DNA of 34,582 bases from a virus. The notes beneath the pieces were generated by a model. That model saw nothing but the letters and a program-made list of their open reading frames with translations. It was not told where the DNA came from and made no database searches. The position numbers and the translations under genes are program-made. The stretch lies in UHGV virus genome UHGV-0129090; one strand, given 5' to 3'. This document shows, piece after piece, positions 12,810-34,582 of the stretch. Position 1 is the first letter of the stretch. Each line of letters opens with the position of its first letter.

Positions 12810-15800
12810 TTATTTATTCTGTGCAATTAGTAATTGAGTTACTACAGCACGTAGTTCATCTAGTTGTAGCTGTTGGTCTGCAATTTGTGCTTTTAGAGTA
12901 TCATTTTCTTTAGATAGTTCTTGGATTGCCGCAAGTCCGTCTAATAGCATTGGGGTTTGATCTAGATGATACAATTCACCAATTTTATTAACGTACTGTG
13001 GATCAATAGTCCTAATCTGTTGGCTAATTACACCGCGACGGGCTTTATCAGGGGTATCATTGAATGTAAAATCCTTAAATTCCATTCTATTGATATTTGA
13101 TAGAGCTACCTTAGTGTCTAAATCACTCTGGATAGTTTTAACAGACTGGTCAGATACTGCCGACATGGTTATTTGGTTCCATGCACTCCATGAGCTGTTG
13201 TTAGTCTGGATACGTGAGAATATACGGTTTGACGTATCATAGAAACGTTGTTGATACCATTGACCAGATACACCAGTTGCAGCACTAGGACCAGCATCTA
13301 GACCCTGCGTACATTGAGTGAATAGAGAGCCGTAAACACTACCCGACGTTGGGGCGTTAGACATAACACCGCCAGTATTTTTCCATCCTTGATACTGAAT
13401 GTTAAAATCATTACCAGACCCACCGTCTGTACTGTTACCGTTTGGTGCTAGGCCGCCATTATAGCCGACATACATCACTGTATTTGCCGATGGTTTGGCA
13501 AAACGTATAGTTTTACGGTTGGTAGTTGATGTATGACCATCCATAAAGAGATATAGACCATCCTCACCATTATTTTCAAAATATACACGTTTCCCAATAG
13601 TACCGTCGCCTACTCGGTTAGAGATAAGATAAACTCCGGGATAGTTGGCTTGTGCAACCAGTTTACTAGAAGAAATAATATCACCACTTGCCGTAACAGT
13701 ACCGGTAGATATTGATCCAGACGTTACAGTACCTGTTGTAGTCAATGATGCAGCATTAATACTATCAGTTGCTACAATAGATTCAGCATTTACACTACCT
13801 GTTGTAGTTAGTGATGCGGCGTTCAAACTACCTGTTGTAGTCAATGTACCCGTACTGGATAGATTACCCGTAACAGATAGATTTTTTAGAGTGGTATTTG
13901 CTGCTGCTGTACTAAGTGTATCCGTACTAGCTGTATATTTAATTACATCAAATGTATCATTTTTAGATAATGTAATATTACCAGCCGTTCCAATTAGTGA
14001 ATATTTTGTAGCACCTGTTCCCGTTTGATTGAGAATAAATGCAGGTGATCCACCTTCAATTGTAATTGGTGATGTTACTTTACCAGTGATTGATAGATTA
14101 CCATTAAATGATTGAGTACCTGCCCATGTATTAGCTAGATTCAGTGCTGGAATCTGATTCCATGTTCCATGTGTGCCAGCTTCGATAGTACGGAAGAATG
14201 CTTTATTCTGTCGGCCTACAATCTGGAAACCATAATTACCACTAAAGCCAGTATGAGTACCACCATAAACGTTAGCACCGTCTGGACCATTCACACTACC
14301 AGCCAGAAATCTACTACGGTTAATAATGGACGTTTGACCGTTCCAGTCCTGACCAGTTGAAGATAAAAATCCATTTGGTGAACTAAATGTACCATCGCTA
14401 TTAAAGTTGAAGAATTGAGTAGTATCACTTGAAGTAACGCCACGCCATACTAATTGAATTGCACCGTCGCTAGTTCTAAATTCTGATTGAGATTTAGTAG
14501 TTTTATCTGCATTCAATTGTTTTGATACAAAGGTAAAATCATTTACACCAGTACCGGAAGCAATAAAACCGTTACCCGCTTCAATATTACCACTAAAGGT
14601 TAATTTAGGAGATGTAATTGTTAGGTTATCGCCAATATTCATCCCATTTGAAAGTACAGCACGACCGCCACCACCGATATAATAGTTTGGTGTAGTAGTA
14701 GAACTATTGGACATATAAAAGCCAGGACGAGCTTGTCTAAAATCGAATAATGCACGTGTTCCGTTTGCTACTGCGGTACTCATTGGATCTTCTACGCCCC
14801 ACGGATAAACTACATCAGTCCCAGCGGTATATGATGCCGTTGGTGCAAATGCGGTACAGAATGCGGGTATCCTCATACGTACTGGGAACGCTCGACCCTC
14901 TACATATACTGCCATCTTATCTTCTGCAATCTTCGCACTAACTAGAATACAGTTAAGTGCTTTTTCAGTTGGTGCATAGCAGTTATAGTAACCATAGCCA
15001 GCATCACCGCGATCTGTCCATCCACCAGCACGTACGAAGCCGTTAAACTGTGCGGAGTTCATTGGATCACCACCAGAAGACGATTTAGTATATAGGTCGA
15101 TATGTGCACCAGTAGAAGAAATATTTTCATAGGATAGATCAATAATTACTGGATAGTATTTGTCTGCTTCCACTCCCGGAGGTGCCGGAATTGCGATTAT
15201 TTGACCACTACCAACGGTAGGGGCTTTAATATTATTTCTAGCAGTAGTAACGTCTGCTACATCACTTAGATTACTTGCAATTTTCAATTGTGCATCATTG
15301 GTTACATTACTTAGTCCTACATCACCTTTAGTGATTGAGATATTACCAGTAAGTGCTTTGCCATTAATAGTAGTAGTTTTTGGTACATATAGATTACTAA
15401 CTTCGGAAGAAGAAAGAATACCTAAGTTTGTTCTCGCCTGTGCTGCCGTACTTGCACCAGTACCGCCCTGTAGAATTGGTAATGCGTATGGTGCGTTGGC
15501 TGTGCCGTTCCATACTCCCCAGGTGCCATCGTTCTTAACAAATAAACGCATATTACCATCACCGGATACTACGCGAGTTTCTCCAACTGGATTAGCGTAT
15601 TCTTGGAAACGGCTTAAACCTAAGTTAGTACGGGCAACTGATTTATCAGCCACATCAGCAAGGTTACTTGCAATTTTCAACTGTGCATCATTGGTTACAT
15701 TACTTAGTCCTACATCACCTTTAGTGATTGAGATATTTGTAGTAAGTGGTCTACCGTTAATAGTACGGGATAATGGCACATACTGATCACTAATCTGAGT

Positions 15801-16511
15801 TGCAGTAAGTATACGCGTCCATGCTGTATTCTGGTTCTTTGCATAGATTGCCAATGTACCGGATTTAGTCATTGCAATACTGGAGAATGTACCGGAATCG
15901 ATAAGACCAATACCCATTAGATCCGCACTAGCTGGGTTATCATTGCGTGCTGCTGGTACTTTGATAAAACTGTTGCCATTTGGTAACTGTGGTTCGTACT
16001 GTGGTACGTCTACGCCGTTACTACCTACGCCATATGATCCTACAACTAGTCCGGTACTCAATGGTGCTTGACCATCACGTACTAGAACGTCGGTAGGGGT
16101 AAAGGTATATGATTTAGTAACTACTGAGTCTTTATCACCAGCAAGGCGAGCGGAACTAATCATACCATTCACCATACTATAGGAGATGATACCATCAGTT
16201 ACGGCGTACTGTAGTGTTAGCTGGAACTCGGTCTGATCTTCGGTCGCTTGGTCTAAAAATGCGTGAGCGGTGCAATCTGGTACGTAGTTAACAACAATAT
16301 CAATATCGTTTACGTTCTGTTCTGCGAGTAGTTTCTCTGAAAATTCACTGTTATATACTTCAATAGATTGTACTTGGCTATCAATACCGAATGAAGGCAT
16401 CGCCGCCAATTCATTTACTAGTTCATTCCCTGCGTTATCGGGGATACGGTTTGCGGTGTCGTCATTATAGAATAATTTAAAACCACTCCCTGTAAAAATT
16501 TGATCTGCCAT
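12810..16511 (-). CDS. Tail fibre protein with N-terminal major-tail-protein-like domain, tandem fibre repeats and C-terminal intramolecular-chaperone (peptidase S74-like) region
   Basis: 1233 aa; residues about 1-150 align with the 152-aa major tail protein; duplicated ITKGDVGLSNVTNDAQLKIASNL motif; Gly/Ser/Thr-rich shaft; C-terminal coiled coil. Confidence 0.7.
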   Translation of the reverse strand: MADQIFTGSGFKLFYNDDTANRIPDNAGNELVNELAAMPSFGIDSQVQSIEVYNSEFSEKLLAEQNVNDIDIVVNYVPDCTAHAFLDQATEDQTEFQLTLQYAVTDGIISYSMVNGMISSARLAGDKDSVVTKSYTFTPTDVLVRDGQAPLSTGLVVGSYGVGSNGVDVPQYEPQLPNGNSFIKVPAARNDNPASADLMGIGLIDSGTFSSIAMTKSGTLAIYAKNQNTAWTRILTATQISDQYVPLSRTINGRPLTTNISITKGDVGLSNVTNDAQLKIASNLADVADKSVARTNLGLSRFQEYANPVGETRVVSGDGNMRLFVKNDGTWGVWNGTANAPYALPILQGGTGASTAAQARTNLGILSSSEVSNLYVPKTTTINGKALTGNISITKGDVGLSNVTNDAQLKIASNLSDVADVTTARNNIKAPTVGSGQIIAIPAPPGVEADKYYPVIIDLSYENISSTGAHIDLYTKSSSGGDPMNSAQFNGFVRAGGWTDRGDAGYGYYNCYAPTEKALNCILVSAKIAEDKMAVYVEGRAFPVRMRIPAFCTAFAPTASYTAGTDVVYPWGVEDPMSTAVANGTRALFDFRQARPGFYMSNSSTTTPNYYIGGGGRAVLSNGMNIGDNLTITSPKLTFSGNIEAGNGFIASGTGVNDFTFVSKQLNADKTTKSQSEFRTSDGAIQLVWRGVTSSDTTQFFNFNSDGTFSSPNGFLSSTGQDWNGQTSIINRSRFLAGSVNGPDGANVYGGTHTGFSGNYGFQIVGRQNKAFFRTIEAGTHGTWNQIPALNLANTWAGTQSFNGNLSITGKVTSPITIEGGSPAFILNQTGTGATKYSLIGTAGNITLSKNDTFDVIKYTASTDTLSTAAANTTLKNLSVTGNLSSTGTLTTTGSLNAASLTTTGSVNAESIVATDSINAASLTTTGTVTSGSISTGTVTASGDIISSSKLVAQANYPGVYLISNRVGDGTIGKRVYFENNGEDGLYLFMDGHTSTTNRKTIRFAKPSANTVMYVGYNGGLAPNGNSTDGGSGNDFNIQYQGWKNTGGVMSNAPTSGSVYGSLFTQCTQGLDAGPSAATGVSGQWYQQRFYDTSNRIFSRIQTNNSSWSAWNQITMSAVSDQSVKTIQSDLDTKVALSNINRMEFKDFTFNDTPDKARRGVISQQIRTIDPQYVNKIGELYHLDQTPMLLDGLAAIQELSKENDTLKAQIADQQLQLDELRAVVTQLLIAQNK

Positions 16512-16524
16512 CTTTTAATTCCTT

Positions 16525-16974
16525 TTATTTTAAAGTTGCTACAATATTTATTGCAAAAGATAGCGATTGATAACCAGTTGACGGATCTGTTACTAGTTCA
16601 CTGTCGGCTACGTCATAGCTATGGAGTTGTACGCCATTATTACCAAATTCCATAATAGTATTAGTACGGAAGTAATCAAAAATAGTACCGAAGGTGTCAG
16701 CGGGTAAATTGATTGAAGGTTCTGGTACTAATAGGAATTGAAAGGTAAAATTACCCATTTGATTTTGATTATTATAGTTTACTGATTGGTATGTTTGATT
16801 GGTTGAAACAAGAATAAAGATATCTCGACCTGCTGCAATATTCATTGCCTTTCGAATTGGAATGATATTATTTAAACTGTCTCTAATAGTTTTCTGTACT
16901 TGTGTTAGTAGATTCATATTACCACCCGTAATTATTAATTGTTGATGGTCTAATGTAAACTTCACTAACACCAC
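16525..16974 (-). CDS. Head-tail connector / tail completion protein candidate
   Basis: Positional only: between capsid gene and tail genes. Confidence 0.35.
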   Translation of the reverse strand: MVLVKFTLDHQQLIITGGNMNLLTQVQKTIRDSLNNIIPIRKAMNIAAGRDIFILVSTNQTYQSVNYNNQNQMGNFTFQFLLVPEPSINLPADTFGTIFDYFRTNTIMEFGNNGVQLHSYDVADSELVTDPSTGYQSLSFAINIVATLK

Positions 16975-17239
16975 TTAAATCATTATAGATATTGAATACA
17001 GTGTAGTTAGTACCCTGTACGCCTACTACGGAATCAATAGCGATACTGTAAGTAGATAGATCATCAGTCTTTACTGATAGAAATGTTTCTGTACTCTCTA
17101 CTAGTCCTTCAGTCCCGCTATCAATGACAACGGGGCGATTATCTACAATTGCTGTAAACGTCGCCCCGTTAATTGTGATAGGTTCACCAAAGGCATTTAG
17201 GAAAGTAGAATCAATTTGATTGCTAGTAAAATGCCTCAT
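16919..17239 (-). CDS. Head-tail adaptor protein candidate
   Basis: Positional only: directly downstream of the major capsid gene. Confidence 0.35.
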   Translation of the reverse strand: MRHFTSNQIDSTFLNAFGEPITINGATFTAIVDNRPVVIDSGTEGLVESTETFLSVKTDDLSTYSIAIDSVVGVQGTNYTVFNIYNDLSGVSEVYIRPSTINNYGW

Positions 17240-17252
17240 AGTGGTTTTATCC

Positions 17253-19115
17253 TTATGGTTTTAGTTGTAGTTGTACAAATGCTTCTTCGTGTGCAATTGC
17301 TACGTCTAGGTACTGGAAGCTACGAATTGCGATAGTCTGAGCTGCACGGTAGGTAGTATCATCAAAATCTAGTTCTTGGCCTTCGTTCCAGTTAGCAAAG
17401 ATTAGTTCGGAAAAATCACCGATGAGAATAGTATCTGCTGCTACAAATGTGCTCTCCAAAACGCGGATCTCGTCGTTCAACCACATATCATAACGATGGC
17501 CTGCTACCATTGCGACGGCTGCGGTGTTATTCAATACTGCGGTTTGACGTAGTTTAGCGAGCATAGAAGGATGGACAATAGCTACACAACGATTGATATC
17601 TACGTTTTTAGCGGAGATAACTTCGATAGCTTTCTGTACGTCTGCTTCGGATACTTGACCAGATACTGCGGTTTGTTGTACTGGAACGGTAGTAGCGATT
17701 TGTGCAAATACTGCTGATTCTAGACCGTTAGAACATTGGCGTAGTAGCTCGTCGGTAACATAACGTTCGGTTGCTGCGTTGCTTAGTAGCATTGCTTTAG
17801 TGATCTTGATACCTGCTGCGAACATGCGAGGCTTTAGAGTGATCTTATCAAAGGTTTCGAAGCCGTCGGTTACTGCTTCATCTTCGTTATAGAATTTAGC
17901 TGCTGGGTTCATACCTTTAGCACGCGGGATAGAGAAGTTGCCACGACCAGCAAGGCCACCAAATACAGTCACTGGTAGTTGACCTAGTACGGTTTGTGCT
18001 AGTAGTTGGCGAATATACGCGTCGGATAGTTCTTCTTTTACTAGACCTGCCGCAGTTACGGTAGAAGTGGTATCAGCGGTGCTACGTACCATTGCGTTTA
18101 GGTCTGCATTATAACCGCGAGCACCTTTTTCGAAAGTTTCTAGATCGTGTGCTTCACCTTTTAGACTGCGTAGACCTTCGTTAATTAGAGATTTCTTTTC
18201 CATTTTTTTGATATCCTTATCAATTGATTTATTATCTGTATTTAGTGAGCGTTTAAAGTCTTCTACGCTTACACCGTTTTTAATTGCTTCTTCTGTACTA
18301 ACACCTAGTACCGAAGAGATAGATTGAAGTTCGCGAATACGATTTGCTTCTACTTCTTTATTTATACTTTCTTGAATATCAGTTACTGCAATAGAACGTT
18401 CTTCTACTAATTCCGGTTGTACTTCTTCTTGTACTTCCTCGATCACTTCGGGTTCTTCTACTACTTCTACTGATTCTTCACTTTCGACTACTACGGATTC
18501 TTCAATTACTTCTGGTTGCACTTCTTCTACTGGTGCTTCTTCAATAATTTCTACTTCCGGTACTAGTTCTTCTTTTTGTTCTGGTTCCATTTGGGGTTGA
18601 TCCTCTAAAGTAATTTCATCATTACTATTTAGTGATCTTCCAACACCAACACTATTATCTGCGGGAGTGGATACGCTAGATACTTCATATGGTTGCCATT
18701 TGGAAACAATGAGATCATTACCATCTAGATAATAGTCTAGGATGTTATAACCTACGGACACTTTAGGGCGAATACCTTCTACGATCATTCCGAAGATAGT
18801 ATTTGCGGTTCCTAGTGCACTAAAACGTACAGTAGCACGACATACCTTATCCATATCTACGCGAGCATTTTCTACTATACCAACCTGACGCATAGCATCA
18901 TGTTCTACTAGTACAGGTGCACCGTCATTGAGGCGGCTTAAGTCTACGTTTTCAGGACTGCATAAAAGGATCTCATTATAGAGAGTTCCTTTAATATCGC
19001 GTACTACTGGAATCTCGGAGGCAAAAGAGAGTTCTACTGTTCTATCGGTTTCATCAATTGCATTATTGATTTGCGTTAGATTGATCGCCCTCGTCTGGTT
19101 CTTGTTTAATTCCAT
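17253..19115 (-). CDS. Prohead protease - acidic scaffold linker - major capsid protein fusion (HK97-like)
   Basis: N-terminal APVLVEHD...VGIVEN and KVSVGY motifs resemble HK97-family prohead protease His/Ser regions; central acidic Glu/Val/Pro repeat region; C-terminal about 300 aa in the capsid position. Confidence 0.6.
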   Translation of the reverse strand: MELNKNQTRAINLTQINNAIDETDRTVELSFASEIPVVRDIKGTLYNEILLCSPENVDLSRLNDGAPVLVEHDAMRQVGIVENARVDMDKVCRATVRFSALGTANTIFGMIVEGIRPKVSVGYNILDYYLDGNDLIVSKWQPYEVSSVSTPADNSVGVGRSLNSNDEITLEDQPQMEPEQKEELVPEVEIIEEAPVEEVQPEVIEESVVVESEESVEVVEEPEVIEEVQEEVQPELVEERSIAVTDIQESINKEVEANRIRELQSISSVLGVSTEEAIKNGVSVEDFKRSLNTDNKSIDKDIKKMEKKSLINEGLRSLKGEAHDLETFEKGARGYNADLNAMVRSTADTTSTVTAAGLVKEELSDAYIRQLLAQTVLGQLPVTVFGGLAGRGNFSIPRAKGMNPAAKFYNEDEAVTDGFETFDKITLKPRMFAAGIKITKAMLLSNAATERYVTDELLRQCSNGLESAVFAQIATTVPVQQTAVSGQVSEADVQKAIEVISAKNVDINRCVAIVHPSMLAKLRQTAVLNNTAAVAMVAGHRYDMWLNDEIRVLESTFVAADTILIGDFSELIFANWNEGQELDFDDTTYRAAQTIAIRSFQYLDVAIAHEEAFVQLQLKP

Positions 19116-20559
19116 TTTCCTTATCTTCCTTGTTGATTTCTTCCATGACGATAACCGGATCGTATCCCATCTCCGAAATTACCATTGCCTTACTCTTTAA
19201 ACCGTTCTCAATTGCTAATACTTCGGTTTGAAGGTCTTTATATGGATCTAGGGAGATTTGACGCGTCTGTACATATTGTGCATGAGTCAATTTATTAAAA
19301 TCACTAAAATTTAAATTGCTTAATGTACTACTATTTAGCATTGCAGATTTTAGCCATGCAATATAAAGAGGTTTCAGTACAGATACAATTAAAGCATTAG
19401 TACGGCTTTTAAATGTTGATTGCTGTAATTTATCAGTTAACTTTGCAGCACTGAATGAAGCATTACTAGTATCAGAAGTTAGAGATTGTTTTGTAATATC
19501 TAATCCCATTGCAATCATCATCATTTGGTTATCAATAAACTCCTGAATACCGTCGGTAGTTTGAGATGGGTTTACTGTTTTAATATCCTGACCTGCCTGT
19601 AGTTCTACGATTGCAGCCGGATTTAGATAGTCCTGATCATAATAAGATACACTGTCATCAGTTAGTAACTGTACGTCATCACTATCAGGATTGGTAATGA
19701 AGGCCATTGCAGACGCTGCAACCTTACGGGAAGTAATTGCTGCCGCCATAAATTCCTCTAACTCTTTTAACTTTTCAGTACCGGAATGAACATCTGGTAT
19801 CCCGCGTTGCTGCGTTGGATAGTCCTGTTGAAACAGGTGTAGGATCTCGTCTGCTGGTACGCGTTCACGCTCACCAATCATATAGTTGTACATGATGGGG
19901 TTATAACGTGTTACCCAATAAGCTACAGGACGGTTATTATTAATATCAAATTCAATACCATTACTAATATAGTTACCACTTGGTAGTAATTGGTTCTCAT
20001 AGGTCGAGATACGCATTGAATCGATAATCTCAATCTGTGGTAGCTCTCCTGGCTTACTGTGAACGCGAATGAAACAATCACCATCTACTGATCGAGTACG
20101 TTCTACCAGACGTTGGAAGGTACTGATATCTAGAGTACCGCAACGTGAGAAGGCTTTAGGATCTTCGGCCCATGCGTAAAAAGCATCTTCAATCTGTTTA
20201 TCGATTGACTGATTAACTTGCTCGTCGTCGGAGCTATGGGTACAAGGGCGAATATATAGGCCATCTGCACCCGTTACGCCTGCACTATTCGTACTGACAT
20301 ATTTCTTTACAATACCGTTCTTAATTGAGAGTTCACGACTTACTGCAACCATTACGGGTAGAGTACGGTTAATAATGGCGTTAATATTACCAGCCTGATT
20401 ACCACCAGTGAATCCAAATGAGATAACAGGACTAGATGATCCCAAATTGAGGGAAGTCATCGCTCGTTTCATTGGGTTGTTTTTCATTAGCTTTACTGGC
20501 TTCTGTACTAATACCTTCTGTTTTGGTTCTTCTACTTTCTTTTTATTCCATCCGAACAT
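19063..20559 (-). CDS. Portal protein
   Basis: 498 aa directly downstream of terminase large subunit and upstream of the protease/capsid gene; acidic C-terminal tail. Confidence 0.6.
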   Translation of the reverse strand: MFGWNKKKVEEPKQKVLVQKPVKLMKNNPMKRAMTSLNLGSSSPVISFGFTGGNQAGNINAIINRTLPVMVAVSRELSIKNGIVKKYVSTNSAGVTGADGLYIRPCTHSSDDEQVNQSIDKQIEDAFYAWAEDPKAFSRCGTLDISTFQRLVERTRSVDGDCFIRVHSKPGELPQIEIIDSMRISTYENQLLPSGNYISNGIEFDINNNRPVAYWVTRYNPIMYNYMIGERERVPADEILHLFQQDYPTQQRGIPDVHSGTEKLKELEEFMAAAITSRKVAASAMAFITNPDSDDVQLLTDDSVSYYDQDYLNPAAIVELQAGQDIKTVNPSQTTDGIQEFIDNQMMMIAMGLDITKQSLTSDTSNASFSAAKLTDKLQQSTFKSRTNALIVSVLKPLYIAWLKSAMLNSSTLSNLNFSDFNKLTHAQYVQTRQISLDPYKDLQTEVLAIENGLKSKAMVISEMGYDPVIVMEEINKEDKENGIKQEPDEGDQSNANQ

Positions 20560-21083
20560 TATCGTGATCTCCTAAATGTAGTAATTGATTTAATAGGACA
20601 ACCAGTATTGAAGCCTTTCATATCCGAAAGTAAATCATTTGCACGACTGACATATACGGGGCGTAGTTTCATAAGTATTTCGCTACTTTCATATGTTAAT
20701 GATTTATTCTGGATTGATTGACTTAATACACCACCGCCCTTAATTCGATCCATGATGATTTGATCAATATCTTTGATGATTTGCATCAGGTCATTGTATT
20801 CTGACGCCTTTGAGGTTGGATCTACTACTTCGAATTGCTGTACTCCATATGCTACGGTACTGTTAATAATTGCAGTCCATACACCCGCTACCCAATTGCT
20901 AGTATCAATATCGGGGAAGGGATATGTATATGAGGTCTTTACCCCGTTTGGATCAATCAAGTCTACTTCTGATCCTGCGGGGTAATCGAAAGTAATAGTT
21001 TCGCCTTTAAAGATATCGCCTTTTAAAGTTACTTTGCGAACTATTGCCATTTTATTTTTTTCCTTATTTAAAGAATCCACCAC
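20559..21083 (-). CDS. Hypothetical head-associated protein (lambda gpW position)
   Basis: Positional: between terminase and portal. Confidence 0.3.
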   Translation of the reverse strand: MVDSLNKEKNKMAIVRKVTLKGDIFKGETITFDYPAGSEVDLIDPNGVKTSYTYPFPDIDTSNWVAGVWTAIINSTVAYGVQQFEVVDPTSKASEYNDLMQIIKDIDQIIMDRIKGGGVLSQSIQNKSLTYESSEILMKLRPVYVSRANDLLSDMKGFNTGCPIKSITTFRRSR

Positions 21084-22977
21084 CTTTACGCGGCCTTATT
21101 ACTCGTTTTGGAGTTGGCTTAGTTGGTGCTTCTTCTGTATTTACTTCTTTATTTAGTCCTGCTTTCTCTTTTTGTTTCGCGTTGTATTCCCTTAGTTGTC
21201 GGAATGGTTGACTACCTAACTTAGATAGATACCACTGGAAACATATAAGCGAGTAATTAAGACAATCGAGAGTTTCATTCCTCGCACTACTAACCTTTTT
21301 CACCCATACCCAGGCACCAGCCTTTATCACTCGTTTCTCGGATGTAATCTGAATAAAGTAATCATCTGGTAATGAATGGCTGAAATGTATTTGTACTTCC
21401 TTACTATTTTCACTATCGGATACAGCACGGTTTAACAATTGTCTAACGTTCGTTTTACCTAAGTTTACATTAAGGTTAATCAGGGAGTGACCACCAGCGG
21501 TACTACCTTTGAATAGTGGGTTTGAGTTAGACGTACCACCCTTAATAGGTTTAAAGATAGTAGAGTTACTGCAATAACGATATACGGTACTGGTTGCGTT
21601 GCCATTACTACTATCGACGAATCCAGCTAATACTTTAAGTGGTTTACCCGAATGTGTTTTCAATGGGGAATTGGCAAAGGCCGTTAGTTTATTCCATGCT
21701 GGGGCTTCGATTTTAGTACAGTCAATTGCGTATATACTGCGATGATCTAAAACATAGAGATTCTTCTCACTTACTCCTAGTGTAGTTACCTCCAACCTGT
21801 CGAGCTGCTGATCGACGCCGTATACCACCCCTAGTACATCGTCGGGTATATTATTAATATCTATTTCACTATCTCTTAGGTTCTCTAACAGTACCAAATC
21901 ATGGTCGGTATTCTCTTTATCAATATATGGTAGTCCTAAGACGTTGTTATAGAATGATGCTAGGTCAAAGGTATAATGTGCTTCGGCAAAGTCTGCCACA
22001 ATTGATTTTATGGAATTGATGGGGGAATAGAGTCTAGATATGTGATAGCCCATTATATCGGTTACTTCTGGTGCTGTTACTATCCATTCACCTTTACGGA
22101 TCATTCGTACGCGTTCTGCTTCGGTGATTACATTATTACACTTAGGACATTCTAGTCTTGCAGTGTCTGCATCAGGTATACGACGGCGACCGCCTTCAAT
22201 AATTTTCCATTCGAATTTAACATTCTCAAATACCATTTCGTGAGAGTGGTTACAGTGAGGGCAAGGTACATAAAACTTTTGTTTATTACTTTGTTCGTAC
22301 TGTTGGGTAATCAGGTCATGTTCATCAAGTGGAGTAGAACAGCACATAATAAGGGGGTTACTAAATGCCTTAGTACGCTGTTCGGCGAGTTTTAAGGGGT
22401 TGCCTTCTTCGCCTAAAGCGTCAACGTTCGAAATTTCATCCAAAAATACGCGAGGGGCCGTTAGACCACGTAGTGAAGCACTACTACCCAATGACAGGAA
22501 GTAGGTAAACGTACCATCTAAATTTTGTTGTGTCTTATCGTTATTAGTATAGTTCTTGTCGTTCTTATTACTAACGAGATTCTTTAGTACCGGACACGCT
22601 TCTATCACTGCCTGCCATTTACCAGTACGGAACTTACTAGTAGTACCACCAGTAGCACCGCCAAATATCATGTTACTTGGATCATTGGCTAGGAAGTAGT
22701 ACATACTATTCTGTAGTACCGTTGTCTTGAGAAGTTGAGCACTGCTCATGAGGACCACTTTGCGGACGCGTGGATTCACGATATCGTTAATGGGTTTATG
22801 CTGGAAGGCGAATAATTTAACACGCTGCCCCTGTAGTTCGCCGTCCGGGAAGACTAGATTACTCTCTACCCAATCCGCTGGTAGTTGTTTCTTCGGAGGT
22901 AGGATTGACTTCGCCGCCCTCGTTAGGATCTTCATCATCTTCTGGTAGTTGTTCTTCATATGTTCCCTCATATTCAT
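21064..22977 (-). CDS. Terminase large subunit (lambda GpA-like); true start probably at an internal Met
   Basis: 637 aa; Cys pairs CPHC...CPKC as in GpA-type terminases; follows the small-subunit gene; 5' end overlaps upstream ORF. Confidence 0.75.
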   Translation of the reverse strand: MNMREHMKNNYQKMMKILTRAAKSILPPKKQLPADWVESNLVFPDGELQGQRVKLFAFQHKPINDIVNPRVRKVVLMSSAQLLKTTVLQNSMYYFLANDPSNMIFGGATGGTTSKFRTGKWQAVIEACPVLKNLVSNKNDKNYTNNDKTQQNLDGTFTYFLSLGSSASLRGLTAPRVFLDEISNVDALGEEGNPLKLAEQRTKAFSNPLIMCCSTPLDEHDLITQQYEQSNKQKFYVPCPHCNHSHEMVFENVKFEWKIIEGGRRRIPDADTARLECPKCNNVITEAERVRMIRKGEWIVTAPEVTDIMGYHISRLYSPINSIKSIVADFAEAHYTFDLASFYNNVLGLPYIDKENTDHDLVLLENLRDSEIDINNIPDDVLGVVYGVDQQLDRLEVTTLGVSEKNLYVLDHRSIYAIDCTKIEAPAWNKLTAFANSPLKTHSGKPLKVLAGFVDSSNGNATSTVYRYCSNSTIFKPIKGGTSNSNPLFKGSTAGGHSLINLNVNLGKTNVRQLLNRAVSDSENSKEVQIHFSHSLPDDYFIQITSEKRVIKAGAWVWVKKVSSARNETLDCLNYSLICFQWYLSKLGSQPFRQLREYNAKQKEKAGLNKEVNTEEAPTKPTPKRVIRPRKGGGFFK

Positions 22978-23455
22978 AACCGCCGATTTCTTCTAACTGG
23001 CGGTCTATCTTGTCCTGTAATTTAATTTTTAGTTCTAGAGCGTCCTGTGATTCAAATAGTTCTACATAACTTGCCGCCGGAATACTTCTTAGTACCTGAC
23101 GTAGTTGATAGAAATATTGTGATAATGTTTGCTGTACTACTGCTACCGGAATTAGTTCTCCAGATTGCTGGCGTAGTTCTAATTCTTTTAGGTCTGCTTC
23201 TGCTTCCAGTTTGCGTAGGGTTGCTTTATGAATCATTCCCTTTACATCACCATTACGCATGGGTTCGATTACGTTCGCCAATAGCCAGTCGTCTACTAAT
23301 TTCTTAGGCCAGCTAATATCCAGTCCTTTACCAGACCAGATACGGGATACTGTGGAATGTTCTACCCCGAATCTGTCGGCAATTTCTTGCCATGAATAGC
23401 GGGTTCCATCGTCTTTATTTTTTGCCATGTGATTTCCTATGCATATTTTATTCAC
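22859..23455 (-). CDS. Terminase small subunit (helix-turn-helix DNA-binding)
   Basis: N-terminal YSWQEIADRFGVEHSTVSRIW helix-turn-helix, acidic C-terminus; first gene of the late operon after a 290-bp non-coding region. Confidence 0.55.
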   Translation of the reverse strand: MNKICIGNHMAKNKDDGTRYSWQEIADRFGVEHSTVSRIWSGKGLDISWPKKLVDDWLLANVIEPMRNGDVKGMIHKATLRKLEAEADLKELELRQQSGELIPVAVVQQTLSQYFYQLRQVLRSIPAASYVELFESQDALELKIKLQDKIDRQLEEIGGYEYEGTYEEQLPEDDEDPNEGGEVNPTSEETTTSGLGRE

Positions 23456-23743
23456 TTTTGATTGATTGGTATTTTCTATCTATTTCGGTACTGATAGATT
23501 TTATCTATAGATTTGTTTGTTTTATGTAAAATTTCTCACGTATTTTTATTATAACTCGCGGCCAAACTTCGCATAGTTTGGCCTATTCAGGAGAACCTAC
23601 CTAAAGTCAAGGGAGTGATTCCATTTTTTTATCTTTTATTTAATATAAAGCACAAATTGCACAAAATCTTGATAGCTTTTACATATCAGTACCGAAGTAT
23701 ACCATCATTCTATTATTCACTGTTTATGCATTGTCTATGCAAT

Positions 23744-24130
23744 CTACTTGAGTATCACCATATTACTAACGATTACATCACAACGATAAGAGATAGGCAG
23801 ACCATCTACGGTACGGTACTGTAAGATCTCGTCGCGTAGTTCCCTTAGTCGGGTTAAGTGTGGTAGCTCACTACCGCTGAATGTATCTAGTGCATTGATA
23901 GGGTAATTAGTACGGCCTATGGTGAAGCGTGAGTAGTTTAATGTAATGTATTTATACTTAAGCGTTAGTGTATAGGTATCTATGAATAGCTCGTAACCGT
24001 CCTGTGTGATGATATGAGCGGTTATTAGCTTATCCTTGCGTGATGGTATGTATCCTGATTCCTGTCGGCCTGTGGTGCTTTCTATGGCCTTATACGTTCC
24101 ATCAGGGAAGTGTAGGTAGATTGTATTCAT
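23744..24130 (-). CDS. Hypothetical protein
   Basis: 128-aa ORF, minus-strand early region. Confidence 0.4.
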   Translation of the reverse strand: MNTIYLHFPDGTYKAIESTTGRQESGYIPSRKDKLITAHIITQDGYELFIDTYTLTLKYKYITLNYSRFTIGRTNYPINALDTFSGSELPHLTRLRELRDEILQYRTVDGLPISYRCDVIVSNMVILK

Positions 24131-24176
24131 GGTGTGATACTCCTATAGCATGTATAGGAGTATTTAGGGGATGGGA

Positions 24177-24833
24177 TTACTTGAAGTGGCGTTTACCAGT
24201 ATAGCTAGTTACGTATTCAGTATAGCCAGGTATATGTACTGGTGATTGATCTTGTAGCTGTTCTGCCGTTCCATCTGTGAATACTACACGATTTGGATGT
24301 GGGGCACATGGTTTATAGTGTTGTAGGATAAATTCTTTATTATCACTATATTGTAATGAGTCATAAGCTACTACACGTTTGCGATCTTTTAGATATACAT
24401 CATACTTCATTTCTTCCTGTACATCTGGCGGTAGATCTTTGAACAATAAGTTTTCATCAGTAGATATAGTTACGGTTATCTTTGATTTTAGTTCTAATGC
24501 GTAGTGAACTAATACACCGCCAAAATAACGATTAGTACAGCCATGATAATCACCATATAGAGAAGAATAGATAATTGAATCTAGTGCCTCTATTGGATCG
24601 TCTAACCGTTCTGATACTATTTTACGATGTTCATGACGTAAGCGGGATAGATTATCACGGATTTCTACGCAGTCTTCGCTGAGATAGAAACGATAACCTT
24701 TACCTAAATTGAAATGACCTACCCCGATTAGTTCGAATCCCGGCTTACTGGAAGGACGAATATCAATAGTACATGTAAGTCCTTTGCGGTGATCGTGCAT
24801 AATAAATTCTTCAAATAGTTCTTTACCTGTCAT
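24177..24833 (-). CDS. Hypothetical protein
   Basis: 218-aa ORF; no recognisable motif. Confidence 0.45.
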   Translation of the reverse strand: MTGKELFEEFIMHDHRKGLTCTIDIRPSSKPGFELIGVGHFNLGKGYRFYLSEDCVEIRDNLSRLRHEHRKIVSERLDDPIEALDSIIYSSLYGDYHGCTNRYFGGVLVHYALELKSKITVTISTDENLLFKDLPPDVQEEMKYDVYLKDRKRVVAYDSLQYSDNKEFILQHYKPCAPHPNRVVFTDGTAEQLQDQSPVHIPGYTEYVTSYTGKRHFK

Positions 24834-24886
24834 TATATTTTTCCTCGTTAGATTGAATAGCCCACTGTGAGTAGTGGGCTAGATTA

Positions 24887-25360
24887 TTAGTTGGTTACTG
24901 TCATTGATAGAAGGCGAACTATAATTTCTGCTGCATCGCCTGTAATAGTGGTTGGTGGGTTATTATTTGGATCATATACCGTCACACTATTATAATCAGT
25001 GGGTACTACACGACCTATACCGGATAACCTTGCAGCATGGTAATCAGTGTTTTCAAATACACGATCTTCTTCTAATACATTATGAAAGCAAAACGTACCT
25101 AATGCTAAATCACTAATTTGATCTGGTTTAGTAGTGGGATTAGTACAGCGATTCTGTGCGAAGCTATGAAAAGCTGCTGCATCATCGATATGATCACCCC
25201 AATGTGATTTTTTATCGGTGTTTCCCTCATACCATGAATCATTATTCTCTACTACTGTATGACCAGTTTTAGTATTGTGTACTAATACAATTTCATTAGT
25301 ACGGCTACTTAGTGTCACTTCTACATCTGGAAGTGAAGGAATGTTTTTTATAATTTTCAT
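24887..25360 (-). CDS. Hypothetical protein
   Basis: 157-aa ORF; stop followed by conserved hairpin module. Confidence 0.45.
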   Translation of the reverse strand: MKIIKNIPSLPDVEVTLSSRTNEIVLVHNTKTGHTVVENNDSWYEGNTDKKSHWGDHIDDAAAFHSFAQNRCTNPTTKPDQISDLALGTFCFHNVLEEDRVFENTDYHAARLSGIGRVVPTDYNSVTVYDPNNNPPTTITGDAAEIIVRLLSMTVTN

Positions 25361-25411
25361 TTACTTTCCTTATTAGATTAAAAAGCCCACTAATAAAAGT
25401 GGGCTATATTA

Positions 25412-25621
25412 TTAGTTAGTATCGAATAATGGCGGTATTTGTGGTATTTCTACTTCCCCTTCAATTGGTTTGCCGTATTGGTCTGCTACCTTTATTACAG
25501 TTTCCTTATAAGGATTAATACTATAATAGTGTTGATGGTCTTCGGTACTAACAATGATACGCTCAATACTCATATTATATTCCGTGATATTACGGATTGC
25601 TTTAATTAGTTTCTCTGACAT
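25412..25621 (-). CDS. Hypothetical small protein
   Basis: 69-aa ORF; stop followed by the same hairpin module as 24887-25360. Confidence 0.4.
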   Translation of the reverse strand: MSEKLIKAIRNITEYNMSIERIIVSTEDHQHYYSINPYKETVIKVADQYGKPIEGEVEIPQIPPLFDTN

Positions 25622-25630
25622 ATATATCCC

Positions 25631-26017
25631 TTATTTTATTTTAACGCAGTTTTGAAAGTAGTAATTACGAGTATCAGATCTCAATAAGAAGATAAAAGTA
25701 ATATCGTTTTGCTCTTTACTTCCCATTGTTGCAAGGAAGTATCGCTGCCTATCATTATCATAAGCCATTGTCATTGAATCATTAGATTCTATTGGTCCGG
25801 TGGCGTGAGTCATTGCACCGAAGTTAAGGATAAAACCATCACTATTAACTTTAGCGTGACCTGCACCAGAATAAGAAGATTTTTCTACTGGAGTATCACC
25901 CAGCATTTCAACTACTTTCACATCACATTGATACAATCCCTGCTCTGGTAGAGAGTGAGTGTTAGCCAGTACCGAAGGAGCTACTAACAGTAATGCAGAT
26001 ACGATAACCTTTTTCAT
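25631..26017 (-). CDS. Secreted/periplasmic protein with N-terminal signal peptide (paralog A)
   Basis: MKKVIVSALLLVAPSVLA signal sequence; two Cys; paralogous to 26027-26407. Confidence 0.55.
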   Translation of the reverse strand: MKKVIVSALLLVAPSVLANTHSLPEQGLYQCDVKVVEMLGDTPVEKSSYSGAGHAKVNSDGFILNFGAMTHATGPIESNDSMTMAYDNDRQRYFLATMGSKEQNDITFIFLLRSDTRNYYFQNCVKIK

Positions 26018-26026
26018 TTCTATTCC

Positions 26027-26407
26027 TTATTCAATAATACAATTGGAGAAGTTCAAAAATACGGGATTATTCTCATTGCTGACCATATACTGTGTTTTAC
26101 CATCGATTGCACTAATAATAATATCGTACTGGTCAGTATCTACGGCATAGGCCATCAGGCGACCGCTTTTAAGTTTTGAAACAGGGCTGAATGAAATATT
26201 CACATCCCTAAACTTCACACTAACAGCACGGTTATCAATACTCACATAACCAGTCATACCATAATAACCAGTCTTTACTACTCGCTTTCCTACCTGTTCC
26301 CACGATTCAACACCGCAACGATACAGACCATCATCAGGGAGTATTACATTTACTGCCAGTACCGAAGGGGCTACTAACAGTAATGCAGACAGTACAATCT
26401 TTTTCAT
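26027..26407 (-). CDS. Secreted/periplasmic protein with N-terminal signal peptide (paralog B; track ORF 26027-26419)
   Basis: MKKIVLSALLLVAPSVLA signal sequence nearly identical to paralog A at nucleotide level; shared LP-x-x-GLY-x-C and NC-[VI] motifs. Confidence 0.55.
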   Translation of the reverse strand: MKKIVLSALLLVAPSVLAVNVILPDDGLYRCGVESWEQVGKRVVKTGYYGMTGYVSIDNRAVSVKFRDVNISFSPVSKLKSGRLMAYAVDTDQYDIIISAIDGKTQYMVSNENNPVFLNFSNCIIE

Positions 26408-26586
26408 AAATTCATCCATTCGGGATTATCTACTTTATCAGAATCAATGGCATTGTTGATGCCAGATAATGACAGTGTTTTTGATTACGGCGACTGCAAT
26501 TTAATAAGTAGGGTTAATGTATTTTATTATATCATAGTAATATGCAGTCCCCATAACTAAAAGTACGGCAAATATTGTTTTCTTCA

Positions 26587-26967
26587 TCACAGATTATCGT
26601 CTATATAATTAGTTGGTTTCGAGAACTCAAATTCTGTACCGTAATTATTTGAACGATCAACTATCTTAGTGGTGTTTTTGTGGGGGCCGTGGGCTTTATG
26701 TTCTTCGAAGCTATGAATATTTGTAAGTCGGTCGGCGGCAATAATACAGCTACCAGTAGATGGGCGTTCTTCACCCAATAGCATAGGCTGACAATCACTA
26801 CTGAATTGTGGGCGATACTCTTTACCACCATTTACGGGGAATAATACTAGTGTACGACCGTTAATATCACCTACTACGGCTTCATTCATAAAAGCAGGCG
26901 TTATAGTAGTACAGCCAGTAGTGATTGTAGCCGTAGCGAGTACAGCTAGGGCAAAGAGATGTTTCAT
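26587..26967 (-). CDS. Putative lipoprotein
   Basis: MKHLFALAVLATATITTGC: signal peptide ending in a lipobox-like TTGC. Confidence 0.5.
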   Translation of the reverse strand: MKHLFALAVLATATITTGCTTITPAFMNEAVVGDINGRTLVLFPVNGGKEYRPQFSSDCQPMLLGEERPSTGSCIIAADRLTNIHSFEEHKAHGPHKNTTKIVDRSNNYGTEFEFSKPTNYIDDNL

Positions 26968-27075
26968 TAGTAAATCCTTGTAGTGATTGTGTGGAGTGAT
27001 GCTTGATGTGAATTATTATAGCTATGATATTTAGTAATAGCTACTACTTTATTTGTGTAGTAGCTATTATTATTC

Positions 27076-27759
27076 TTATACTACCTTATAGGCTTTAGTA
27101 ACAAGCTCTTTGAAGTCTTGCTCGTCGGCCTGTTTAGGATACTGCTGCTTGTACTCGGCGTAGTATTCTTGTGCTTTCGCGTTCATCTTCCCTTTCTGGT
27201 TTAGATGGAACTCATGACCGTTCCACTTCGCATTAAGCGGGTATTTTTTGCGATAGTCCTCACTATACGCCCGTAAAAACTCGTCAACGTCCGATAGTTC
27301 GGGATTCTTCTTAACCAACTGAATGTATACTTCATCCTTGAGTAATGCCGCTGGTAACTTCTTATTGATTACATTATAGGTTCTTCTTTCGTCCTTCTTG
27401 CTATCAACTATGACTACTTCGAATATCTTATTACCGTTTGGCTTCGATGCTTTTTGTGGTATGGAAGCAGGAGAAGATACGGCAAGTGTAGAAAGCAGTT
27501 CCTCTACACTAGAGAAGCTACCAGACTCTTGTACAAGTGATTCTAATAGCTTCTTAGCTTCGTTTAGTCGCTCGGTACGTAGTGTGCTTACATAGTCCTT
27601 CACTTCGCCCAGGCGTTGAATAAGTGTATCTATATCTTCTTCGTTGACGTTTGCCAGTGCATTGCGGCCTGTTGCGTCGGCAGTCAACATACCTACATTA
27701 AAATCATCATTCAGAATCGTACTGATCATTTTTGCGGTAATGCTTTTAATGCTTCCCAT
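27076..27759 (-). CDS. Hypothetical protein (227 aa)
   Basis: Largest ORF of the early region; Lys/Glu-rich C-terminus; no confident motif. Confidence 0.45.
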   Translation of the reverse strand: MGSIKSITAKMISTILNDDFNVGMLTADATGRNALANVNEEDIDTLIQRLGEVKDYVSTLRTERLNEAKKLLESLVQESGSFSSVEELLSTLAVSSPASIPQKASKPNGNKIFEVVIVDSKKDERRTYNVINKKLPAALLKDEVYIQLVKKNPELSDVDEFLRAYSEDYRKKYPLNAKWNGHEFHLNQKGKMNAKAQEYYAEYKQQYPKQADEQDFKELVTKAYKVV

Positions 27760-27947
27760 AATACAGCCTCATTTGGTTTTAACAGTAACTGAGTACAATC
27801 GGTTAGTTTATCTAGATTTGCAAGTGGGATCTCCTTCAAAGTGTTTATCATCTCACTGGTAAGACCAAATTCACTTAGTAGATCTTCTTCGGAAAGTTTC
27901 CGTACTGTATCTATATAGAGCACGTTTAGCTCATTAAGATCATTCAT
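27726..27947 (-). CDS. Hypothetical small protein
   Basis: 73-aa ORF overlapping neighbours at both ends. Confidence 0.35.
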   Translation of the reverse strand: MNDLNELNVLYIDTVRKLSEEDLLSEFGLTSEMINTLKEIPLANLDKLTDCTQLLLKPNEAVLWEALKALPQK

Positions 27948-28228
27948 AGCTTAATGTTCACGCGTTTTCTAGTTAGTAAGTTCAATAGTGCTTCGTTATA
28001 GGTAGTGTGCCACGTCTTACCATCACTAAAAGGCTTATTGATGTGTCGGGGATGCTTAGACATAGTGACCGCCCCTACCTTTCGGTTGTGATCGTCGAAA
28101 ACTTCGGTTATAAGTCCACCAGCAATACAACTAATACGCATGTAAAGATCCCAGCAATGAAGAAAAAGAAATTTGCAGCCGCAAGGTAAGTAAAGGTTAA
28201 TTTTTTCATAGAGTGTCCATATTAACAC
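27944..28228 (-). CDS. Hypothetical small protein (start uncertain)
   Basis: 94-aa track ORF with several internal Met. Confidence 0.3.
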   Translation of the reverse strand: MLIWTLYEKINLYLPCGCKFLFLHCWDLYMRISCIAGGLITEVFDDHNRKVGAVTMSKHPRHINKPFSDGKTWHTTYNEALLNLLTRKRVNIKL

Positions 28229-28264
28229 TACCAGTATATTTCCGGTACTAGTAGTGTAAATTGA

Positions 28265-28558
28265 TTAATGTACGTTAGTAATTTCTTCGGATACTACTTC
28301 TAGTAATGAAGCGAAAGCACGTTCACCATCGAATCGGGCAATAGTGATCTTATCGGTTACACTCTTAGGTAGATTGATGTTCTTTTCCCAATGGAACAAG
28401 CCACCAGACATAAGAAACATACTGAATAATTCACGCTCATTATGACGGGAACTAATTACTACATGAAACATTCCCGTTACACGATTATCAATCTCGTTAA
28501 TCTTGAATCCTAAATCATGTGCCTTAATGATCAAATCAGTAGATACACCCTTAGACAT
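28265..28558 (-). CDS. Hypothetical protein, divergent from 28800-28982
   Basis: 97-aa ORF; upstream region contains promoter/operator-like elements. Confidence 0.4.
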   Translation of the reverse strand: MSKGVSTDLIIKAHDLGFKINEIDNRVTGMFHVVISSRHNERELFSMFLMSGGLFHWEKNINLPKSVTDKITIARFDGERAFASLLEVVSEEITNVH

Positions 28559-28654
28559 TTTCGATACTCCCTACGATTAGTAACAAGGTTATGATGACTA
28601 CAAATAGTACATGCTCTTTAGTGATAGTGAACGTCATGTTGTGTCCTCGTTGTA

Positions 28655-28686
28655 TTGACACCACTGATACTAGGATCATTAGTATC
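28655..28686 (+). promoter_or_regulatory. Candidate sigma70-type promoter (TTGACA -35) overlapped by palindrome GATACTA-N7-TAGTATC (operator-like)
   Basis: ttgaca at about 28655-28660; perfect 7-bp inverted repeat at about 28666-28686; sits in the divergent intergenic region. Confidence 0.35.
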
Positions 28687-28799
28687 TAACGTCAACACTA
28701 GTTACTAAAATAATTTATTAGTAGAAAACGCTTGATAGTAACTAACGGTAGTGTATACTGTCTTTATTGAAGCAAAACACTACTACGAAGGGATATATA

Positions 28800-28982
28800 A
28801 TGAATACAGTAACTTACTTAGAACGCGGTAACATCACTGATATCATGGTTAACGATGTATATATGGGGGCGGTAGTAAAAGGTGACGATAACAAATATCG
28901 TACCGTACATAAGAACAATGCAGAATCTGGTACGTTTACTGCTTTCCACTTCGCAGCGTACCATGTAGAAAAAGCAGTATGA
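28800..28982 (+). CDS. Hypothetical small protein (track ORF from alternative start at 28767; ATG at 28800 has a better ribosome-binding site)
   Basis: gaaggg about 8 nt upstream of ATG at 28800; one of only a few plus-strand genes; followed by terminator. Confidence 0.4.
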   Translation: MNTVTYLERGNITDIMVNDVYMGAVVKGDDNKYRTVHKNNAESGTFTAFHFAAYHVEKAV

Positions 28983-28993
28983 TAGAAACGATG

Positions 28994-29018
28994 AAGCCCA
29001 CATTAAGTGGGCTTTTTT
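28994..29018. terminator. Rho-independent terminator (bidirectional, between convergent genes)
   Basis: Stem aagcccac / gtgggctt with loop attaa, then tttttt. Confidence 0.65.
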
Positions 29019-29527
29019 GTCTTGTGTGGTTTCTTAGTCTTCGGTACTGGTACTGCTTCTTCCTCTGTAACGTCCTGTACGCCCCTTAGAATGCGTTCTA
29101 CTTCCTCGGCGTTGCGTTGTACGTCTGTATAGATTCCTTCTGCTACGTAGCGTTCTAGACCCTCTACGTTGGGGATTCCGTGGCTGGCGACCACACCATC
29201 CACATGATGAATATGTAGGTCCAGTCCACCATTGATACGGGCACGGAAGTTATACGGGTTATTATTCAGTATTTCGATTTGCATTATTTTTACTCCATTG
29301 ATTATACAGTCTGACATAAAGATTATTTCATCCAGATCATCCATGACTACGGACAACTGGAAGTATTCTGCCTCATTCAGTCCTAGATAGTAATCAGGGG
29401 GATGATCGTACTTGATAGTATTATTTAGTAGTATGCCTTTACGATTGACTGCATAACGTCTGGCTAACTTGTAGTCATTGAATATCAAGCCACGTGGGTT
29501 ATTGTATATTATTTTTAGTTTTCTCAT
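29003..29527 (-). CDS. Hypothetical protein
   Basis: 174-aa ORF; Lys/Pro/Thr-rich C-terminal tail. Confidence 0.4.
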   Translation of the reverse strand: MRKLKIIYNNPRGLIFNDYKLARRYAVNRKGILLNNTIKYDHPPDYYLGLNEAEYFQLSVVMDDLDEIIFMSDCIINGVKIMQIEILNNNPYNFRARINGGLDLHIHHVDGVVASHGIPNVEGLERYVAEGIYTDVQRNAEEVERILRGVQDVTEEEAVPVPKTKKPHKTKKPT

Positions 29528-33804: not shown

Positions 33805-33844
33805 CTACTTACCTCCATTCACTGTGGTGTACATCCTATCACAA

Positions 33845-33850
33845 CTGTTC
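33845..33850. repeat. attR core (ctgttc) at right prophage/host junction
   Basis: Same hexamer as 667-672; host frame resumes here; phage arm gtggtgtacat (33824-33834) mirrors atgtacgccac (687-697) across the core. Confidence 0.7.
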
Positions 33851-34532: not shown

Positions 34533-34582
34533 AAGAAAATGGCTCAGCAGCGGCTTAAATCAGCCTGCGCCTGAGCCAGTTT

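Follow-up and report, generated by a model that had tools for sequence, protein, structure and literature searches.

The prohead protease of bacteriophage HK97, gp4, has reportedly been described by Duda, Hendrix and co-workers as a separate protein of 225 amino acids that is present in sub-stoichiometric amounts and is targeted by its C-terminus. In herpesviruses (UL26/UL26.5) and in the phages lambda (C/Nu3) and Mu (I/Z), a protease with the assemblin fold, or a functionally equivalent one, is fused upstream of the scaffold, and the ratio of protease to scaffold is set by a second in-frame start, from which a product lacking the protease is made in abundance. Moreover, fusions of a protease with the major capsid protein have been annotated in the families phrog_617 and phrog_4523 ('major head and protease protein') and in the phages PPpW-3 (Pseudomonas), Murka (Xanthomonas), VP882 (Vibrio), phiHAP-1 (Halomonas), R4C and the Rhodobacter RcC-cluster phages, with GenBank product names such as 'major capsid protein and peptidase U35' (PPpW-3) and 'major capsid protein and protease'. 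The same concept is a routine label within SEA-PHAGES, where 'major capsid and protease fusion protein' is used for Arthrobacter (AN, AU, AW) and Microbacterium (EE) phages, which are likened here by name and not by sequence family. The present analysis concerns a 620-residue open reading frame (ORF) on the minus strand of the virus genome UHGV-0129090, a stretch of 34,582 nucleotides that is referred to as the window and that carries an E. coli prophage of about 33 kb.

The ORF very probably encodes a head-assembly cassette in one chain, consisting of an S78 prohead protease, an acidic tether of about 75 residues, a delta-type scaffold and an HK97-fold capsid protein, with self-processing of the chain inferred. 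An earlier note, made from the sequence of the window, had proposed a single self-processing polyprotein; the presence of protease, linker and capsid protein in one 620-residue chain was borne out, whereas the notion of one product may be incomplete in view of a conserved candidate start at Met176. The parts of the chain are located as follows (all on the minus strand):

17253..19115, minus strand: whole ORF with ATG start, 620 residues, 68.4 kDa, isoelectric point 4.5, comprising protease, acidic tether, delta-like scaffold domain and HK97-fold capsid protein
18621..19088, minus strand: prohead serine protease domain (residues ~10-165), predicted to be of the S78/HK97 gp4 type with assemblin fold
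18900..18902, minus strand: codon of His72, predicted catalytic histidine
18756..18758, minus strand: codon of Ser120, predicted catalytic serine
18396..18620, minus strand: acidic disordered tether (residues 166-240), net charge -29, from composition and the structural model
18084..18395, minus strand: helical scaffolding (delta-like) domain (residues 241-344), from a family profile match to HK97 gp5 including the delta domain, and from model helices
18081..18086, minus strand: Arg344-Ser345, candidate maturation cleavage site at the boundary of scaffold and mature capsid protein, from conservation, the low-confidence segment 342-364 and the R4C chain start
17256..18083, minus strand: mature HK97-fold major capsid protein (residues ~345-620), 30.0 kDa, or 29.0 kDa if it starts at residue 356, from Pfam, PDB profile and Foldseek matches

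The N-terminal motifs that had been likened to an HK97-family protease are all present, with VLVEHD at residues 68-73 (including His72), VGIVEN at 78-83 and KVSVGY at 118-123 (including Ser120), and the assignment of residues ~10-165 to an HK97-type (MEROPS S78) prohead serine protease is supported by sequence comparison and by the structural model. Nine positions (Glu48, Leu50, His72, Gly79, Ser120, Tyr123, Glu144, Asp153 and Arg160) are invariant across 101 diverse full-length relatives with 24-54% identity to the query, and His72 and Ser120 are also invariant in 38 aligned homologues. His72 aligns with His65 of HK97 gp4 and Ser120 with Ser114 in the gp4 motif GMSVGF, His65 and Ser114 being the catalytic pair of gp4; in a profile alignment, the segment EVSSVSTPAD, containing an E-[IV]-S...PAD motif, is in register with EISVCTFPAN of gp4.

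The direct comparisons weigh against this assignment. Peptidase_S78 (PF04586) matched the ORF with an expect value (E) of 0.013 and 16.1 bits, the cutoff being 21 bits, and a comparison of PF04586 with residues 1-168 gave nothing at E<=0.01, while HK97 gp4 itself aligned in register but without significance (BLASTP E 0.2; hhalign E 0.11, probability 0.5). A profile of the N-terminal domain returned only spurious eL19 matches among PDB sequences, S78 protease structure being out of sequence reach. The protease assignment therefore rests on transitive homology, conserved residues and the predicted fold. The transitive homology is provided by 37 of the 38 aligned homologues, which are 41-60% identical to the protease domain and individually match PF04586 (best E 7e-14), and in the structural model, where residues 10-160 have predicted local distance difference test (pLDDT) scores of 95-98, the N-terminal domain is predicted to adopt the assemblin-like fold common to T4 gp21 and herpesvirus proteases.

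The sub-threshold Pfam score of this copy could be read as the mark of a catalytically dead protease relic that acts as extra scaffold or internal cargo, with maturation carried out by a host protease or proceeding without cleavage. This reading is considered highly improbable, as the invariance of His72, Ser120 and seven more positions over such a range of identities is not expected of a dead domain. Moreover, the protease domain is conserved like the capsid domain among 118 close relatives (majority-residue frequency of 0.90 as compared to 0.895), and the N-terminal 361 residues of the homologous R4C protein are absent from the virion shell model.

The capsid-sized C-terminal domain that the earlier note had pointed out was identified by sequence profiles and by the model as an HK97-fold capsid protein. 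Pfam Phage_capsid (PF05065) matched residues 357-617 with E 8e-17 (62 bits, cutoff 24.2), and the profile search against PDB gave 8gta with E 2e-73. Foldseek searches with the full model returned the R4C capsid first (E 3e-15), followed by those of phiXacJX1, D3 and HK97 (to E 1e-13), and capsids of gene transfer agents (GTA) were retrieved as well, the values ranging to 1e-10. The full-length model is modular (pLDDT 81.8 overall), with a low-scoring and unstructured segment at residues 342-364 and an HK97 fold at residues 365-620 (pLDDT ~90-98); structure prediction, which had been suggested as a check, thus placed a protease fold at the N-terminus and an HK97 fold at the C-terminus.

Positions 239-605 of the family profile align to residues 6-379 of HK97 gp5 (3qpr, E 4e-23), delta domain included, and it aligns in the same manner over the entire length of the D3, RcGTA and phiXacJX1 capsid proteins. 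Residues 241-344 are therefore regarded as homologous to the HK97 delta (scaffolding) domain; helices are predicted at residues 247-270, 275-280, 284-294, 299-305 and 310-318, and pLDDT is mostly high over residues 247-318. It is this helical domain, at about residues 241-344, that corresponds to a scaffold, and not the acidic linker before it, to which a scaffold role had been ascribed; the acidic stretch is an extra disordered, hypervariable tether.

The tether is indeed strongly acidic and rich in Val and Pro (residues 166-240: 39% Asp/Glu, 20% Val, 9% Pro), but the repeat that had been described in it was not recovered: Tandem Repeats Finder gave just one weak 9-bp array with a score of 31, and the linker is therefore a case of compositional bias instead of a true repeat. 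Residues 166-244 are modelled without secondary structure at a pLDDT of ~41. Among the 118 close relatives, the tether is the most variable segment of the protein (majority-residue frequency 0.58), occurring in 52 variants of 44-75 residues that are acidic throughout. In the wider family it measures 12-113 residues and is net negative in 94% of the 101 members; the clade of the prophage has an unusually long and acidic tether, with net charges of -23 to -34 as compared to a family median of -5.

Unfused arrangements do exist, such as gp38/gp39 of Faecalibacterium phage FP_Epona, and they raise the question whether the fusion is an artefact of a sequencing or frameshift error or of a pseudogene junction, with the real genes being separate as in HK97. 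An exhaustive search with residues 1-175 retrieved 5,062 clusters at the 50% identity level (E<=1e-3); among the best 150 cluster representatives, 20 are shorter than 300 residues, whereas 117 have at least 500 residues and are thus fused. The identical 620-residue chain is found in several independent assemblies, and about 120 close variants of 585-621 residues occur in assemblies of E. coli, Shigella, Citrobacter and Salmonella. Moreover, the six enterobacterial sequences (the window and loci L003-L007) all have an unbroken ORF, as do about a dozen sequenced phages. This recurrence of the fused ORF across assemblies effectively refutes the artefact reading.

Roseophage R4C provides the closest solved structure. 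Its gp6 (encoded at L002 3995-5884) has 629 residues in the same four-part layout as the 620-residue ORF, with 35% identity in the protease domain (E 3e-19) and 22% in the capsid domain (E 9e-12). The chain in PDB entry 8GTA corresponds exactly to R4C residues 362-629. The electron cryo-microscopy paper on R4C reports a T=7 virion shell with 415 copies of a 268-residue capsid protein; as it makes no mention of protease, scaffold removal or cleavage, only the length of the 268-residue chain could be used, and the paper was set aside as experimental proof of cleavage.

When mapped onto the ORF, the R4C chain start (residue 362) falls at residue ~356, with Arg344-Ser345 located 11-12 residues upstream, and R4C itself has an Arg-Ser 11 residues upstream of its virion chain start. 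Of the 101 family members, 95 have Arg344, and the Arg-Ser pair is present in 118 of the 118 close relatives. By analogy to HK97, where the corresponding site is Lys103/Ser104, Arg344/Ser345 would be the maturation site, which predicts a mature protein of 29-30 kDa, and the removal of the delta-like domain at maturation appears to be implied by R4C. The true N-terminus may, however, precede the start of the 8GTA chain, which could be merely the first residue that is ordered. That the 620-residue chain would process itself is inferred from its homologues and from the virion structure of R4C.

Combined, these elements suggest how the one-chain cassette may operate. The lambda-type portal would be the site on which the scaffold and capsid parts assemble together into a procapsid, whose triangulation number is probably T=7, like that of the homologue R4C. 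The N-terminal 344 residues would point into the shell, and the tethered protease would be carried inside. Being covalently tethered to the inward-facing scaffold, the protease would need no separate targeting signal. The acidic tether may, speculatively, provide reach, interior solubility and exclusion of nucleic acid. Crowding in the shell could then lead the His72/Ser120 active sites to cleave the chain in the tether, in the scaffold and at Arg344/Ser345 or close to it, after which the cleaved fragments would leave and the capsid protein of ~29-30 kDa would stay and expand around the DNA. As a probable refinement, a ribosome-binding site and ATG at Met176 would add a protease-free protein consisting of tether, scaffold and capsid parts, by which the protease dose would be kept below one per subunit.

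The features that bear on this refinement are the following:

18588..18590, minus strand: ATG of Met176, candidate nested in-frame start of a product of 445 residues (49.1 kDa) with tether, scaffold and capsid parts and without protease, from conservation and a Shine-Dalgarno (SD) motif
18601..18605, minus strand: GAGGA, SD-like, 10 nucleotides upstream of the Met176 ATG, with an anti-SD duplex free energy (dG) of -5.8 kcal/mol
18201..18218, minus strand: second internal AAGGA-N10-ATG, at Met305 inside the scaffold domain, with dG -6.0, which would give a product of 316 residues

Met176 lies 16 residues past the GVGR motif of the protease and is invariant in 118 of 118 close relatives, despite the hypervariability of the tether. 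With a dG of -5.8, its upstream motif compares well with that of the ORF's own start (-5.4) and with the median of 20 gene starts in the window (-4.85), and genuine starts in the window look alike, with AAGGA or AGGAG, a spacing of N8-10 and ATG. In the window gene and five relatives with 52-100% identity, the only in-frame internal ATGs that reach a dG of -5 are the equivalents of Met176 and Met305; exceptions are found in L007, with -4.4 for the Met176 equivalent and -4.0 for Met493, and nearly all remaining in-frame methionines are weaker than -3.5. The SD-like motif is kept while the residues that it encodes vary (LED, LKD, LKE, SEGEQ), and its GAGGA uses one of only 7 GAG codons among the 68 Glu codons of the gene.

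The signal recurs at larger distance. A methionine 8-25 residues after GVGR is present in 66% of 127 diverse cluster representatives, as compared to ~27% expected from the Met frequency farther along the same linkers. Of 12 independent lineages, 10 have an in-frame ATG with an SD-like motif at a distance of 14-36 codons from the protease domain, on its downstream side; they are listed here with the position of the ATG in codons after GVGR and the anti-SD dG:

R4C (GGAGGA): +18, -9.5
PBb002: +25, -7.8
VP882: +14, -7.1
DCP80: +15, -6.2
Persinger: +36, -6.1
PPpW-3: +36, -6.1
ECO1230-10: +34, -6.0
Window gene: +16, -5.8
Mica: +32, -4.6
L007: +15, -4.4

The motif is also carried by phiHAP-1 (+16, -5.9; genus of VP882) and RcRhea (+20, -6.0; genus of R4C), which were not counted as separate lineages. 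Over the 12 lineages, Fisher's combined p amounts to 4e-6 with a gene-wide null and to 0.002 with a local null, the latter being conservative as it is drawn from the same purine-rich linker.

Several observations count against a nested start. The remaining two of the 12 lineages, cyanophage S-LBS1 and Murka, have no convincing motif, and one third of the family members have no Met at +8 to +25. SD-like strings are common in the purine-rich linker, and with the local null p is only 0.07-0.15 per lineage. In addition, the Met and the SD motif could owe their conservation to something else, or they could have been left behind by a gene fusion. An alternative that we consider quite possible, slightly short of an even chance, is that all subunits have 620 residues and that Met176 with GAGGA is an ancestral capsid-start relic, a protease-recognition or tether-anchoring motif (from the conserved segment SLNSN.EI.L...M), or an SD-like pause that aids protease folding. 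The frequency of SD-like strings and the family members without the Met agree with this alternative, as does the fact that, in the enterobacterial clade, the amino-acid sequence between GVGR and Met176 is fairly conserved, whereas the survival of the SD-like motif through residue changes, with its rare GAG codon, is at odds with it. The motif moreover recurs in phages that are ~30-45% identical and have unalignable linkers, its strength and spacing equal those of real starts of the same genome, and a neutral relic is unlikely to last over such divergence where the gene evolves fastest.

A naturally unfused arrangement also speaks for the nested start. In FP_Epona (L017 2183-4319), a 176-residue protease ends 25 residues after GVGR and is followed by a 530-residue capsid gene; the stop is separated from the capsid gene by 13 nucleotides that contain GAGGT (GAGGT-N8-ATG), at the position equivalent to Met176. 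The simplest reading of the sequence signal would be that the start of the capsid gene itself is retained inside the fusion and still works. The chances are about evenly balanced that the large fusion family consists of dual-output genes, in which an internal ribosome-binding site and ATG after the protease domain would yield a protease-free protein beside the full-length chain, giving mixed procapsids in which the protease dose would be set by the ratio of initiation rates. As a separate observation, RefSeq names the 176-residue FP_Epona protease 'major head and protease protein' and the 530-residue capsid gene 'head maturation protease', names that seem to have been exchanged or that at least mislead.

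A nested coding sequence is annotated in none of 14 phage records from GenBank that were examined, and the literature that could be searched gave no relevant description of a nested start or of peptidase U35 fusions. A preprint on the cyclic-oligonucleotide-based antiphage signalling system (CBASS) was set aside as a precedent, as it concerns a protease-scaffold fusion and not a capsid fusion.

The second internal motif, at Met305, is kept in the window gene and in L003-L007, that is, in the enterobacterial clade only and not in distant phages, and could simply reflect the conserved protein motif DK[DE][IV]K.M. A run of seven A residues (18203-18209, minus strand) lies directly 5' of the Met305 ATG; frameshifting at this run was considered and rejected, as either shift terminates after 6-8 codons and no supporting evidence was found. 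A slippage product, if made, would be a fragment of protease, tether and partial scaffold.

With respect to its genomic context, phrog_617 spans residues 5-616 of the 620 residues of the ORF (E 3e-90) and phrog_4523 residues 17-290 (E 4e-40) in the PHROG scan. On the minus strand, the gene order is small terminase, gpA-type large terminase, gpW-like gene, lambda-type portal gene, the 620-residue ORF, a Phage_attach/head-closure gene and tail genes. The first 53 nucleotides of the ORF are shared with the portal gene (19063-20559) and the head-closure gene (16919-17239) begins 14 nucleotides past the ORF stop, leaving no room there for a separate protease, scaffold or capsid gene, as the earlier note had observed. 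Neither was another protease or scaffold found among the 29 window ORFs, the fusion included, in PHROG and Pfam scans (several ORFs below 110 residues fell outside the scan), so that the separate protease gene elsewhere which would speak against the proposal did not appear. The same gene order, without a separate protease, was found in four relatives obtained by exact-protein look-up, and the order also recurs in about a dozen sequenced phages. The DNA of the relatives was taken from exact-protein look-ups and GenBank phage records, a related-locus search of species-representative genomes having given one locus.

The gene is rare, with 2 carriers among 5,426 complete E. coli genomes, and the element is unusually AT-rich for E. 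coli. A megablast comparison of window positions 16500-23500 with 50,697 phage records gave no match, from which it follows that no phage sequenced so far is closely related to the prophage; at the protein level, the fusion is only 30-47% identical to its counterparts in sequenced phages, the local identity being at most 47%. The G+C content is 0.45-0.48 at the window ends (1-1000 and 32206-34582) as compared to 0.32-0.43 inside, and a large serine recombinase of 532 residues is encoded at 32206-33804; positions 1-1000 and 32206-34582 are likely to be the prophage boundaries. In the early region, eight consecutive ORFs of 126-227 residues (23744-29527, minus strand) have no PHROG or Pfam match, and an HNH endonuclease gene (30886-31491, minus strand) is located distant from the terminase genes. 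Among the tail genes, a 1,233-residue 'tail fibre' (12810-16511, minus strand) has a first ~155 residues that are paralogous to the adjoining 152-residue major tail (tube) protein (12293-12751, minus strand; 31% identity, E 6e-19), and it ends, after a long fibre, in a Peptidase_S74 chaperone domain; it may be a tube subunit that bears a side fibre. A similarly large gene (829-1,438 residues, with Peptidase_S74 or Phage_tail_C_2) occupies the equivalent position in L004-L006.

The fusion itself is ordinary, and the gain lies in annotation, since the NCBI name of the ORF and of hundreds of relatives, including 100% identical E. coli proteins, is just 'phage major capsid protein', and since the protease of this clade escapes Pfam. 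If every subunit carried a protease, the removable cargo of a T=7 procapsid would amount to ~16 MDa by our own estimate (415 x 38.4 kDa). A functional nested start would explain how the loading of about 415 proteases per procapsid is avoided, with the cargo roughly halved and the protease dose set, and it would extend the dosing by alternative initiation of herpesviruses and lambda to a very large phage group. In addition, the compactness of a single-gene cassette could be of use in engineering capsids that mature by themselves or containers of the encapsulin type.

Compared with HK97 gp4 and gp5, the prophage protein has the same protease family, with the catalytic His/Ser in register and a predicted assemblin fold, a delta-homologous scaffold, an HK97-fold capsid protein, and the same order of portal, protease and (scaffold-)capsid. 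It differs in that its protease and its capsid protein form one continuous reading frame with the acidic tether between them, and in that the terminase and portal of the prophage are of lambda type (gpA/gpB families). The annotated fusions share with it the same four-part architecture and the synteny of gpA terminase, small gene, lambda-type portal and fusion, whereas the tether of the prophage clade is longer and more acidic and its protease domain misses the Pfam threshold. In view of the PHROG families, GenBank names and the SEA-PHAGES label, the fused architecture is already known and the prophage protein is a divergent member of it; the conserved internal start might be the sole potentially new element. 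With its conserved SD motif and ATG, Met176 would, as far as the sequence signal goes, copy the nested-start logic of UL26/UL26.5, lambda C/Nu3 and Mu I/Z. In those systems the capsid protein is separate and bound non-covalently to the scaffold, whereas both products of the present gene would end in the capsid protein.

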